From positions 1-37,543 of the IMG/VR virus record IMGVR_UViG_3300048904_000041: a stretch of DNA of 37,543 bases; one strand, given 5' to 3'. Position numbers and translations under genes: made by a program. Shown in pieces: positions 1,925-8,332 of this stretch; within the stretch, counting starts at the first letter, position 1; every line of letters begins with the position of its first letter. The notes beneath the pieces were generated by a model. That model did no database searches. It worked only from the letters and a program-made list of their open reading frames with translations, and was not told the DNA's origin. The DNA is from a virus (Duplodnaviria > Heunggongvirae > Uroviricota > Caudoviricetes).

Positions 1925-1950
1925 CAAAAAAACCCGCACTTGGCGGGTCT
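1925..1950 (-). terminator. Rho-independent terminator closing the tRNA operon
   Basis: ACCCGC/GCGGGT stem followed by a T7 tract on minus strand. Confidence 0.85.
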
Positions 1951-1951
1951 A

Positions 1952-2157
1952 TTCTTGCCTTGCGGCTACAATTCCTTGTCGGGTAATTGTTATTCGTGAC
2001 TACTTCGACCGAAGCTCGTATGTCTTTCGGGGGTCACATAAACTCTAGGTCACCTGTGGGGACTCTTACCCCAATGAACGGGTTGCAAACCGATCCTCTA
2101 AGTTACCGCAGAACCCTCACGGTAAAGTGTTTGTCATATTAGGAGCGACCTAATCAT
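1952..2157 (-). ncRNA. Candidate structured ncRNA at 3' end of tRNA operon
   Basis: No credible ORF; consecutive hairpins ATTAGG/CCTAAT, TTACCG/CGGTAA, TGGGG/CCCCA, GTGAC/GTCAC, ACAATT/AATTGT, GCC-GCAA-GGC. Confidence 0.55.
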
Positions 2158-2235: not shown

Positions 2236-2625
2236 TTATCTCTTTCTCTTGGATGAGACATTTCTAGCTCTGAATGTCGGTGTCATTGCGTGAAAATTCG
2301 GACATAGAATTTTAAGATTTTCGATTTTGCAATTGTGTGCATCACCATCAACATGATCCACTTCAGTCAATGTTCTACCATCTACAGGATGTTTTATATC
2401 CCATGAACAGACTTCACAAGCAGTCCCACGTGTTTCATGCAAATACCGATAGATGTAATGGGATAGGTCAGCCGTTTTACCACCACAACCCTTCTCATCA
2501 CCTTTCATCCAACGATCAATGTAATCTACATATCTCTTTTGTTGTTGGCATTTGTTTGAACAATAAAGACCCATCGTATTCTTCTTTGGTTTGTACTCTA
2601 ATAAGCAACCTTTACAGATAGTCAA
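2236..2625 (-). CDS. HNH endonuclease (free-standing homing type), possibly degenerate
   Basis: CEVC...EVDHVDGDAHNCKIENLKILCPNFH; TTG start with AAGGA RBS; sits between two tRNA genes. Confidence 0.85.
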   Translation of the reverse strand: MTICKGCLLEYKPKKNTMGLYCSNKCQQQKRYVDYIDRWMKGDEKGCGGKTADLSHYIYRYLHETRGTACEVCSWDIKHPVDGRTLTEVDHVDGDAHNCKIENLKILCPNFHAMTPTFRARNVSSKRKR

Positions 2626-2801: not shown

Positions 2802-2851
2802 TTTAGATGGAACGGATAACTTGAATCTTAATGCCGTCTCATCATCTTAAT

Positions 2852-2927
2852 TGGCAGTCCTAACGGGAATTGAACCCGTGTCTCTCGCGTGACAGGCGAG
2901 TATAATCGACCACTATACGATAGGACT
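2852..2927 (-). tRNA. tRNA-Asp(GUC)
   Basis: AGTCCTA/TAGGACT acceptor, G73, CTCGC-CTGTCAC-GCGAG, encoded CCA. Confidence 0.92.
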
Positions 2928-2969
2928 AAATAAGTGCAATTCCCTGATGGTATATTGCGAACCGAACTC

Positions 2970-3096
2970 GGAGACTACGGATGGAATCGAACCATCTACC
3001 CTTACTCAAGCTGCGCAGCCCTTTCAAGTTTTAAACATCATCCACTTCACGCAAAACCAGATGCGCATCCAGAAGACCGTTGCAGATGTCGTAGTC
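2970..3096 (-). ncRNA. tRNA-like RNA 1 (127 nt, expanded body)
   Basis: Perfect 7-bp acceptor GACTACG/CGTAGTC, T arm GATGG-TTCGATT-CCATC, U73-C-C; ~50 extra nt and no canonical anticodon arm. Confidence 0.65.
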
Positions 3097-3104
3097 ATAA
3101 TATA

Positions 3105-3227
3105 GGAGGATCATAGTGGAATCGAACCACTATTAACTAGCCGCTAAACTAGTCTCAATGTGTAAAGTACCCACAACACTCGCTAACTACGTTTCGAACC
3201 GTCGATAGTTTGTGTCACATTTGATCC
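3105..3227 (-). ncRNA. tRNA-like RNA 2 (123 nt, expanded body)
   Basis: Acceptor GGATCA/TGATCC, T arm AGTGG-TTCGATT-CCACT, U73-C-C; internal hairpins replace the D and anticodon arms. Confidence 0.6.
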
Positions 3228-3234
3228 CATTGTT

Positions 3235-3310
3235 TGGCACCCACGGCACGACTCGAACGTGCGACCAACAGATTAACAGTCTGCTGCTCTACCAACTGAG
3301 CTACACGGGT
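3235..3310 (-). tRNA. tRNA-Asn(GUU)
   Basis: Canonical D arm GCTC-AGTTGGTA-GAGC, GCAGA-CTGTTAA-TCTGT, G73, encoded CCA. Confidence 0.92.
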
Positions 3311-3316
3311 ATAATT

Positions 3317-3395
3317 TGGTTGCGTGGGGCTGGATTTGAACCAGCGATTTCTAGCTTATGAGGCTAGTGAGATGACCAGACTTCTCTACCCCGCA
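3317..3395 (-). tRNA. tRNA-Met(CAU)
   Basis: CTAGC-CTCATAA-GCTAG, T arm GCTGG-TTCAAAT-CCAGC, encoded CCA; one extra A in the 3' acceptor strand. Met vs Ile2 not resolvable for certain. Confidence 0.85.
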
Positions 3396-3399
3396 ACAA

Positions 3400-3568
3400 T
3401 GGTCATTTGCAGTTGGGAATTCAGTGGTGCTATTAACCTGCTGACTCCGTATTCCAACCGCTTATTGATGTCACCGTGGAGCAAAGCTCAACACAATGAC
3501 AGCATCCCAAGTGTCACCCAATGCACACAGGAGAGGGATGTACACTGATACATCAACAAGGGAATGCT
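3400..3568 (-). ncRNA. Candidate structured RNA(s) at 5' end of tRNA operon
   Basis: Stems GTCATT/AATGAC, GCGGTTGGAAT/ATTCCCAACTGC, GAGC/GCTC, AGCATTCCC/GGGATGCT, GATGTA/TACATC. Confidence 0.5.
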
Positions 3569-3589
3569 CTATAATCTTTGTATTCGCTC

Positions 3590-3618
3590 ATTATAGCAAC
3601 ATCCCCGTCAGTTGTCAA
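3590..3618 (-). promoter_or_regulatory. Consensus sigma70 promoter of the tRNA operon
   Basis: TTGACA-17 nt-TATAAT, perfect consensus. Confidence 0.9.
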
Positions 3619-5457: not shown

Positions 5458-5670
5458 ATGATCGACTGGAATAATGCTGAAATCACATGCTCTGAATTTG
5501 CGAAACCACGCGCTCAACATCTGATACACGCCGATCTTATGAAGATCATAGGTAATGACAATCATGCTTGGAGTCTCATCAGCGAGCTTGAAAACGCAGC
5601 ATGGGAATGTGGCGTTGAGGAAGCAAATGCATGGCAAGAAGCATTCAAACAAGACCCATACGCTCAATAA
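5458..5670 (+). CDS. Hypothetical protein, 70 aa
   Basis: GGAG RBS, first gene after promoter. Confidence 0.75.
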   Translation: MIDWNNAEITCSEFAKPRAQHLIHADLMKIIGNDNHAWSLISELENAAWECGVEEANAWQEAFKQDPYAQ

Positions 5671-5681
5671 GGAGAAGCACA

Positions 5682-6806
5682 ATGCAAGCACTACAATACA
5701 TCAAGCAACACGGTATCAAGGCACTGACAGATAACCTCGGTATCAAGGTTCGTCGTGATGGCGATCTGATTACGCTTAACTATTGCCAAATCGAAAGCCC
5801 AAAGACTGACCCTGTTGTCATGGAATGTCGGGGATTGACCCTCAACCATGATGGTACTCAAGTTATATCGCGTGGTATGGATCGATTCTTTAATCTAGGT
5901 GAAGCACTGAATGTCGCTCCTGAAATTAATTGGGACGAAGCTGTGCTCTTCGAAAAGGTTGACGGTAGCTTCATCAAGATCTATTGGAACCCTCTTGATG
6001 ACCGTTGGGAAGTCGCTACACGTGGAACAGCATTCGCATCTACCGATTGCATGGGTCACGGTATTACGTTCCGCGAACTGGTGTTCAAGGCCCTTGGTGT
6101 GTCTTCTGAACAAGAGTTCCAAGAATTGATCGACAATGCATCTCTCTACCCTGAATACACATACATGTTCGAACTGACCTGTGCCGAGAACCGCGTGGTC
6201 AAACATTACGATGGTTACAAACTCCACTACCTGATTTCGCGTGATAACGAAACAGGTGTGTATGCCGATGAACGCACATGGCTTAGCATTCATGACGGAG
6301 AAGGTAATCCGCTGTGTGGTCTGCAATTAGAATTTCCTAAGCAGTTCACGTTCAAGTCGGCTGAAGAGTGTCAGCGTGTCTGTGCAGAGCTGAAAGACCT
6401 TGACGAAGGTTATGTTGTCTACCAAGAGGGTGTACCAGTCAGCAAGATTAAGTCGCCAGCATATGTAGCAGTTCATCATATTCGTGGTGAAGGTCTGAAC
6501 AGCACTCGTTGCAAAGAACTGGTATTGTCCGGTGAGGTCGAAGAATATCTGACCTACTTCCCACATGACCGTGAGATGTTGAAACCGTACATCGATGCAA
6601 TGAATTTGCTTGACTGCCACATGGATGCGGTTTATGCTTGTGTCCAGAACGAAGAGGATCAAAAAGAGTTCGCCCGTAAGATCGCAGGAATGCCGTTTAA
6701 AGCTGCGTTGTTCGGTGCCCGTCTGCGTGGTACTACTCCTCGTGAATCCTTTAACCAACAGCTTCTCAGCTATCGTGTACGTCAACTTGAGGAATACTTG
6801 AAGTGA
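5682..6806 (+). CDS. rnlA: RNA ligase 1 (T4 Rnl1-like)
   Basis: Motif I EKVDGS, ECRGL, FELT, EGYVV, KIKS; start reassigned to MQALQ with AAGGAG RBS. Confidence 0.92.
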   Translation: MQALQYIKQHGIKALTDNLGIKVRRDGDLITLNYCQIESPKTDPVVMECRGLTLNHDGTQVISRGMDRFFNLGEALNVAPEINWDEAVLFEKVDGSFIKIYWNPLDDRWEVATRGTAFASTDCMGHGITFRELVFKALGVSSEQEFQELIDNASLYPEYTYMFELTCAENRVVKHYDGYKLHYLISRDNETGVYADERTWLSIHDGEGNPLCGLQLEFPKQFTFKSAEECQRVCAELKDLDEGYVVYQEGVPVSKIKSPAYVAVHHIRGEGLNSTRCKELVLSGEVEEYLTYFPHDREMLKPYIDAMNLLDCHMDAVYACVQNEEDQKEFARKIAGMPFKAALFGARLRGTTPRESFNQQLLSYRVRQLEEYLK

Positions 6807-7438: not shown

Positions 7439-8332
7439 TTGAAGGCTATCATTACAGTAGGTATCTCTTGCAGCGGTAAGTCGTCGTTCGCAGCTCAGAT
7501 GGTTGAGCAACATAACTACACGGAAATCAACCGTGACTGGATTCGATTCAACGTCGTGATGCCGGGTGCTGATTGGCGTAGCTACAAGTTCACAAAAGCA
7601 CGTGAGGAAGAAGTGACCGACGTTGCTGATAAGCTCCTGATGGAATCGTGGGCTGCTGAGCGAAACATTATCATCAGCGATACCAACCTGAACACTGGTC
7701 GTCGTCAATCTCTTATCAATAAGCTTGAAGACCTCGGTTATAATGTTGAAGTGAAAGTGTTCGATGTCACCTTTAAAGAAGCAGTGAAGCGTGATAACTA
7801 TCGTCTGAACGGTGTTGGTCAGGACATTATTTACAAACAGCTTCAGCAATTCAACGATATGTCGATGCGTAAAACCTACGACTTCCAAAATGCTCAGGAT
7901 CGACACCTTCCTGCTTGTATCATTGTTGATGTTGATGGTACGATTGCTGAAATGCATGACCGTGGCCCTTTTGAATGGAAGAAGGTTGGTCAGGATAAGC
8001 CACGTAACGTAATTATGCAGATGGTTCGTGCATACAAGCGTATGGGTTATGATATTATCATTTGTTCTGGTCGTTCTGATGAATGTTACCATGAAACAGA
8101 AAAATGGCTTGACAAACATTTGGGTTACGATTACTATGACGATATTCACATGCGTAAGGCTGGTGACTTCAGGAAAGACGATGCTGTAAAAGAGGAAATC
8201 TTCTGGAACCACATCGCCCACCAGTACAGTGTTTATGCCGCGATTGATGATCGACCTCAGATGATTCGTCTGTGGCACGAACTGAAGATTCCAAACGTCA
8301 TCGCCGTAGCTGACCCATATATTGAGTTTTAA
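7439..8332 (+). CDS. pseT: Polynucleotide 5'-kinase/3'-phosphatase
   Basis: P-loop GISCSGKS, INRDWIR, C-terminal HAD motif DVDGT, SGR, IDDR. Confidence 0.93.
   Translation: MKAIITVGISCSGKSSFAAQMVEQHNYTEINRDWIRFNVVMPGADWRSYKFTKAREEEVTDVADKLLMESWAAERNIIISDTNLNTGRRQSLINKLEDLGYNVEVKVFDVTFKEAVKRDNYRLNGVGQDIIYKQLQQFNDMSMRKTYDFQNAQDRHLPACIIVDVDGTIAEMHDRGPFEWKKVGQDKPRNVIMQMVRAYKRMGYDIIICSGRSDECYHETEKWLDKHLGYDYYDDIHMRKAGDFRKDDAVKEEIFWNHIAHQYSVYAAIDDRPQMIRLWHELKIPNVIAVADPYIEF

Follow-up and report, generated by a model that had tools for sequence, protein, structure and literature searches.

Here we describe two tRNA-shaped RNAs, elements A and B, that are encoded in tandem within the tRNA operon of a phage. 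Taken as a whole, with the layout, processing and role proposed below, they are probably genuine small RNA genes of this operon, for which we use the term tRNA-scaffold RNAs. A and B are two new families of a known, unexplained kind typified by RNAC of phage T4; no paper describing either family was found in the literature. Two mutually unrelated families of one design are thus added to the kind of stable tRNA-like RNA known from T4. Family A combines strong covariation with a defined secondary structure, and its presence in the cultured Pseudomonas phages M5.1, COT4 and UNO-G1W1 makes deletions, pull-downs and northern blots practical.

The stretch of DNA analyzed, referred to here as the window, covers the first 37.5 kb of an IMG/VR phage record of 102,477 bp with a completeness rating of 99%. 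Six tRNAs are encoded on its minus strand in the order Met-Asn-Asp-Glu-Pro-Thr, as called by ARAGORN and Rfam. Synteny is shared with Pseudomonas phage phiPMW (Plaisancevirus): each of the two carries a tRNA operon on the minus strand and, after it, divergent genes encoding an Rnl1-type RNA ligase, a polynucleotide kinase-phosphatase (PNK), a PRPP synthetase and NAMPT. An initial annotation of the window had placed two tRNA-like elements between tRNA-Asn and tRNA-Asp. This placement is confirmed (3228-3105 and 3096-2970, minus strand), and both elements fall within a single unit running from promoter to terminator. The main features of the locus are as follows.

3590 to 3618, minus strand: operon promoter, a perfect sigma-70 sequence (TTGACA, 17-nt spacer, TG-TATAAT; 12/12 matches)
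3321 to 3396, minus strand: tRNA-Met (CAT) with encoded CCA, called by ARAGORN and Rfam
3235 to 3310, minus strand: tRNA-Asn (GTT) with encoded CCA, followed by the spacer AACAAU and then element A
3105 to 3228, minus strand: element A, a tRNA-shaped RNA of about 124 nt
2970 to 3096, minus strand: element B, a tRNA-shaped RNA of 127 nt with a homologue in Erwinia phage UCB24
2852 to 2927, minus strand: tRNA-Asp (GTC) with encoded CCA, called by ARAGORN and Rfam
1930 to 1950, minus strand: intrinsic terminator closing the operon
5631 to 6806, opposite strand to the operon: Rnl1, 2.4 kb from A and B
7439 to 8332, opposite strand to the operon: PNK

The structure proposed for A consists of an acceptor stem, a D-stem-like helix P2, an inserted arm (P2b, P3 and the apex loop), a hexaloop hairpin P5 and a T arm. 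P2 encloses the inserted hairpins together with a 3' internal loop that carries an invariant GG (GGGUA, 3172-3168).

3222 to 3227 with 3113 to 3108, minus strand: acceptor stem of A, GGAUCA paired with UGAUCC, followed by the tail UCC (3107-3105)
3158 to 3220, minus strand: long arm of A, closed by P2, the D-stem equivalent (AUGUG, 3220-3216, with CACAU, 3162-3158)
3192 to 3199, minus strand: apex loop of A, G-UUCGAA-A, a palindromic hexamer
3136 to 3153, minus strand: hairpin P5 of A at the anticodon-arm position, with a covarying 6-bp stem and the invariant hexaloop UUAGCG (3147-3142)
3114 to 3132, minus strand: T arm of A, UAGUGG-UUCGAUU-CCACUA, with a 6-bp stem and the loop UUCGAUU

Homologues of A were found by blastn, unannotated, between tRNA-Lys and tRNA-Ser in the Otagovirus phages M5.1, COT4 and UNO-G1W1. 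Pattern scans added four IMG/VR phages (L006, L007, L009 and L050) and one metagenome contig (L024), giving a family of eight distinct sequences: the window, M5.1, UNO-G1W1, the four IMG/VR phages and the metagenome contig. The metagenome scan returned L024 and one duplicate, while six other loci failed R1, the covariance model of A; a looser IMG/VR scan returned 35 loci, with L050 as the sole new member. All carriers are phage contigs of about 100 kb, A lies invariably in the tRNA cluster, and it is often preceded by spacers of the AACAAU type such as are found between true tRNAs. Public records hold no annotation at the sites of the A and B homologues; genes of this type have been overlooked.

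The comparative evidence for the structure of A is strong. Over the eight sequences, in an alignment that was fitted to the model and is therefore biased in favor of the structure, 94.9% of cells are paired against 36-48% when partners are slid, double-sided changes occur in 21 of the 32 pairs, and the observed covariation score is reached by no shuffle. A MAFFT-based count over six sequences gives the same picture (90.8% paired, 21 pairs). Pairing is complete (100%, n=8) in the acceptor stem, P2 and the T arm. A closer relative, seen in a freshwater-metagenome contig, provides a ninth variant and with it an independent line of support. Its A differs from that of the window at 17 positions; three pairs show compensatory swaps (76/93, A-U to G-C; 80/89, G-C to A-U; 100/112, U-A to A-U), and an A to G change at position 79 makes a G.U pair. 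The hexaloop UUAGCG, the GG just 5' of the 3' strand of P2 and the T loop are invariant, as is a GACA that follows the 5' strand of P2 and spans its last base pair. Single-sequence folding of A is unremarkable and not informative (z = -1.6).

The loops of A have separate histories. In L050 the apex hexamer UUCGAA has become UCAUGA, four substitutions that keep the palindrome and leave the T loop unaltered. This single variant suggests either self-pairing of two molecules or a constraint acting on the DNA. Pairing of the apex loop with A's own T loop was considered and rejected, since L050 alters the former and not the latter. The apex loop and the hexaloop of A are mutually non-complementary, and no conserved partner was found for the hexaloop: its complement CGCUAA is absent from the operon RNA of the window, and related loci hold only scattered, unconserved copies. 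At the 3' end five members read A-C-C-A, and the window reads U-C-C, M5.1 G-U-C and L006 A-C-A; as the last two have no intact CC, a strict need for a CCA end may be doubted.

Element B is represented by fewer sequences. Its only distant homologue found is in Erwinia phage UCB24, at about 70% identity, where it lies 3' of tRNA-Asn, ends in U-C-C-A and is directly followed by a strong terminator.

3057 to 3072, minus strand: apex hairpin of the long arm of B, loop UGCGCA (3067-3062)
3000 to 3028, minus strand: hairpin P5 of B at the anticodon-arm position, hexaloop UGCGCA (3017-3012), complementary to the apex loop
2973 to 2996, minus strand: T arm of B, GAUGG-UUCGAUU-CCAUC, and the acceptor 3' strand CGUAGUC, followed by the tail UCC (2972-2970)

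Between the window and UCB24, 10 of the 30 predicted pairs of B are altered on both sides: five in the acceptor stem (GACUACG/CGUAGUC), three in P2 and one each in P5 and the T arm. The apex and P5 loops both read UGCGCA in both phages, and an AAGUGG just 5' of the 3' strand of P2 is conserved. The two loops, palindromic, identical and invariant in both known copies, would form a 6-bp duplex with a computed energy of -8.3 kcal/mol. The B of the freshwater relative differs from that of the window at two positions, one an A-U to G.U change and the other unpaired in the comparative structure. The single-sequence folding score of B (z = -0.45) is, like that of A, unremarkable and not informative. 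Pattern scans of IMG/VR and GTDB for further homologues of B gave nothing or GC-rich false positives, which were rejected by eye and by R2, the covariance model of B; a blastn search of the phage collection with the UCB24 copy returned UCB24 alone, and R2 gave only weak tRNA-level matches on five whole related phage records. A coding reading of the plus strand here (ORFs 2934-3116 and 2947-3105) was rejected, as the UCB24 alignment requires 1-nt gaps.

These comparisons bear out much of the initial annotation. The acceptor stems, the T arms with their TTCGATT loop and the U73-C-C ends that it described are present in both elements. Collecting homologues and building covariance models, as it had proposed, yielded eight sequences with covariation for A and one homologue with ten double-sided pairs for B. 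Its argument that a shared architecture speaks against simple decay is upheld by covariation in every helix of A and in the acceptor stem, P2 and T arm of B, and by the freshwater swaps. Among the hairpins it listed, ACTAGT/GCTAGT, AACTAT/GTAGTT, ACAC/GTGT and GGGCT/AGCTT fit the comparative structure and CATCTG/TGGATG comes close, being placed here as ACAUC/GAUGU; GCGCA/TGCGT is not conserved in UCB24.

Both elements resemble canonical tRNAs in their acceptor stem, their T arm with the loop UUCGAUU, the 12-bp coaxial stack of the two (6+6 in A, 7+5 in B, with a T loop of the form UUCRANY), their NCC(A) end, a GG just 5' of the 3' strand of a D-stem-like helix, and their operon position and spacers. 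They differ from them in their length of about 125 nt, with some 40-50 nt inserted in the D loop, and in the hexaloops UUAGCG (A, on a 6-bp stem) and UGCGCA (B) where a tRNA has a 7-nt anticodon loop on a 5-bp stem. Modeled as tRNAs, A and B look like molecules whose D loop has taken up a large hairpin and whose anticodon arm has given way to a hexaloop hairpin, with P2 corresponding to the D stem; the conserved GG can be read as occupying the place of G18 and G19 in this model. The closing pair of P5 in A is U.G or C-G depending on the member, which marks its loop as a hexaloop and not an anticodon loop. With the anticodon arm replaced in this way, A and B would be unable to decode. We know of no nameable anticodon loop of which their loops are a copy.

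Standard searches agree with this picture. With default settings, with or without introns, ARAGORN called no tRNA or tmRNA at A or B, as had been forecast. Rfam 15 held no family at threshold for either element, the best being a partial tRNA match on B (RF00005, 15.8 bits against a gathering threshold of 29). All six canonical tRNAs of the window have an encoded N-CCA, whereas the tail reads UCC-U in A and UCC-G in B; the lack of an encoded CCA noted earlier thus holds. We also scanned the whole 102-kb genome for T arms followed by a 7-mer that could pair with another one lying 60-200 nt upstream. The matches on the tRNA strand were limited to the tRNAs, A, B and one 87-nt element near 70 kb, and the plus strand gave one weak candidate. 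That A and B exceed chance follows from these few genome-wide matches and from their conservation, with covariation, in other phages.

The 87-nt element, outside the window (G000:C1:70016-70102, minus strand), has a T arm GUGGG-UUCGAAU-CCCAC, an acceptor stem with 6/7 pairs, no CCA and no tRNA call. The tRNA clusters of related phages hold other uncalled tRNA-shaped elements of 97-121 nt, each with an acceptor stem and a T arm and none of them related by sequence to A or B: L006:1398-1500 (plus strand), which has G3.U70 and a UCC tail, L024:7053-7173 and L024:7353-7449 (both minus) and L015:449-567 (minus).

Non-decoding RNAs that reuse an acceptor stem and T arm are familiar from tmRNA and from YrlA, the Y-RNA-like RNA of bacteria and phages, some of them phage-encoded. 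Like the tRNA-like domain of tmRNA and like YrlA (RF02553), A and B are non-decoding RNAs built on tRNA modules. Unlike tmRNA, with its tRNA-Ala-like G3.U70, they have Watson-Crick, covarying 3-70 pairs, and they show neither a tag reading frame nor an ARAGORN tmRNA call. The ends of YrlA make a Ro-binding stem, whereas those of A and B make an acceptor stem; no match to RF02553 was found on A or B, the only one in the region (22 bits against 69) spanning tRNA-Met and tRNA-Asn. In engineered tRNA scaffolds and in the TMERs of the gammaherpesvirus MHV68, a tRNA body lets host tRNA enzymes excise and stabilize a passenger RNA. In these eukaryotic or engineered systems the passenger stands in place of the anticodon arm or comes after the tRNA, and the main insertion of A and B, unlike theirs, is in the D loop.

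The closest counterparts are in phage T4. RNAC and RNAD are stable RNAs of a phage tRNA cluster that have been known for about fifty years and whose roles are stated to be unknown in reviews and in a recent omics study (PMC3014915, PMC9697503). The genes rnaD (species 2, 119 nt) and rnaC (species 1, 139 nt; NC_000866 70908-71046) lie in tandem directly after tRNA-Arg, so that T4, like the window, has a tandem pair of RNAs of about 120-140 nt 3' of a tRNA in a phage cluster; A and B are known from sequence. The minimum-energy fold of RNAC (z = -4.6) shows four arms, namely a terminal stem, a long arm on the 5' side, a hairpin whose hexaloop is CGUCAA, and a canonical T arm; the comparative structures give the same layout for A and B. 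The RNAC apex loop UUGACG is the exact complement of its hexaloop, and both hexamers are invariant in 4-5 relatives whose long arms have otherwise diverged, which is co-conservation and not covariation. In B, the UGCGCA loops are found at these same two positions and complement each other, and by this analogy B appears to be built on the RNAC design; A departs from RNAC in that its apex loop does not complement its own hexaloop.

The differences are equally clear. The acceptor stems of A and B are regular and are followed by NCC(A) tails, whereas RNAC lacks CCA and its acceptor-like stem contains tandem U.U mismatches that are conserved. The relatives of rnaC (L004:1409-1547, minus strand) keep the tandem U.U, show one covarying pair (A-U to G-C) and end in UACAA. 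RNAD, unlike A and B, has no T arm. A blastn search with rnaC returned 748 records, by organism name almost all T4-like enterobacterial phages or close relatives, and no A or B locus. As R1 and R2 match neither rnaC nor rnaD, A and B appear RNAC-like in their working and are not members of its family. The tRNA-mimic RNA class suggested by the initial annotation holds in its core, A and B being conserved, tRNA-shaped and non-decoding; it is not a class unseen before, since T4 RNAC and RNAD have the same layout. The recurrence of one design in unrelated sequences, a tRNA body whose D loop is enlarged by an insertion and whose anticodon gives way to a hexaloop, suggests convergent or very old selection for a non-decoding tRNA-shaped ligand, and the old question of what such RNAs do becomes more tractable.

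We propose the following course of events. A and B would be co-transcribed with the six tRNAs from the strong promoter at 3618-3590. They appear to retain what the maturation machinery reads, namely the 12-bp acceptor/T stack, the UUCGAUU loop, the D-stem-like helix with its GG, and N73-C74-C75. RNase P needs no more than an acceptor/T minihelix, with C74 and C75 pairing to its RNA component. RNase P would cut the 5' ends of A and B, with the encoded C74 and C75 available to pair with its RNA; such pairing fits the fact that CC is kept even without an encoded A76. Exonucleases would trim the 3' ends and the host CCA-adding enzyme would add A76. The predicted products are stable, L-shaped, tRNA-like molecules of about 125 nt that cannot be decoded. 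In B the apex and anticodon-side UGCGCA loops may pair and close the molecule, as UUGACG and CGUCAA of RNAC can; in A the palindromic apex loop may mediate dimerization, leaving the invariant UUAGCG hexaloop free for a partner acting in trans.

The likeliest role, which we put forward tentatively, is that of a tRNA look-alike which cannot be decoded and which, as a ligand or decoy, occupies or titrates some tRNA-binding factor of host or phage. A more specific version, which we regard as rather doubtful, makes A and B anti-defense or host-takeover RNAs: closed, anticodon-less tRNA mimics, B locked by its kissing loops and A dimeric, that trap a host factor recognizing tRNA. Such a factor might be an immune nuclease that cleaves tRNA, an enzyme that modifies tRNA or a sensor responding to uncharged tRNA. 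If this is true, RNAs of the T4 RNAC type would gain their first function. The syntenic relative phiPMW carries neither A nor B, and as it does without them, they are accessory.

Relic, charging, repair-substrate and cis-processing readings of A and B are all less likely than the ligand or decoy. It is extremely improbable that they are decayed tRNA genes, functionless relics with acquired insertions. At lowered thresholds ARAGORN does place partial, spurious tRNAs inside A and B, R1 and R2 match ordinary tRNAs weakly from end to end, and the CCA tail is imperfect in the window, M5.1 and L006; however, a relic is not expected to keep 95% pairing over eight diverged copies, with compensatory changes in every helix, the inserted arm included, and loops invariant across phage genera. 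Molecules that are charged and used outside decoding, as a transferase donor or a tmRNA-like rescuer, or in a variant as a decoder of the quadruplet YUUAGCGG, would account for the retained 12-bp stack, for A73 with CCA in five A members and for U73 with CCA in UCB24 B, and the mitochondrial mode of ARAGORN even reads a 4-base 'tagc' anticodon in A. We nevertheless hold charging to be very improbable: the P5 loop of A, closed by U.G or C-G, has six nucleotides where an anticodon loop would have 7 or 8, the freely covarying acceptor stems leave no G3.U70 or other constant acceptor identity, M5.1 and L006 have no CCA, and the tag reading frame and tmRNA call are missing.

Another reading makes A and B substrates, as already raised in the initial annotation, or guides of the RNA repair pair Rnl1/PNK; they might, for instance, be tRNA-like RNAs that undergo splicing or repair. 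Both genes lie 2.4 kb away on the opposite strand, and Rnl1 also occurs in G001, G003, M5.1 and UNO-G1W1. The idea is weakened and retains very little probability: the complete A-bearing record G002 has no Rnl1 match, in phiPMW the syntenic Rnl1 and PNK genes are present although A and B are absent, and excision of the inserted arm would leave no decodable tRNA. Finally, A and B could act in cis only, as processing punctuation or folding spacers for the neighboring tRNAs. Their location between tRNAs of one transcript favors this, as does the soil contig of a relative, described below, in which the Asn-Asp slot holds other sequence. Yet the simple spacers of the operon are just 5-50 nt long, punctuation needs neither invariant loops (UUAGCG, and UGCGCA twice) nor CCA ends, and B of UCB24, the last gene of its operon, has no downstream tRNA to serve; a role confined to cis is accordingly improbable.

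Several further features of these operons were observed. In a 1,574-nt contig of a soil RNA-seq library, an identical tRNA-Asn is linked to a tRNA-Asp that has diverged, and the slot between them holds 294 other letters against the 305 nt that contain A and B in the window (window 2851-3310). A leader of about 185 nt between the promoter and tRNA-Met (3397-3583, minus strand) has blocks in common with the leaders of L050 and phiPMW, the shared block being CCCUCUCCU in RNA (3529-3537, minus strand), and may be a conserved structured leader. Between tRNA-Pro and tRNA-Thr, a 129-aa ORF (2236-2625, minus strand) has a weak HNH_3 match (E = 4e-4, below the Pfam threshold), reminiscent of segB within the T4 tRNA cluster. 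A small conserved ORF, with the start MTKFYDAT and the block HPNKG, occurs in the tRNA operons of L006 (591-717), L050 (9416-9540) and phiPMW (L030, about 7473-7598); it directly follows element A in L006 and L050 and was not seen in the operon of the window. Immediately upstream of the operon terminator, at 1966-1986 (minus strand), lies the 21-nt motif TTACCCGACAAGGAAWTGTAG, for which the chance expectation in the window is none and which is exactly kept in the tRNA operons of L006, L007, L024, L050 and phiPMW (L030:7186-7206).
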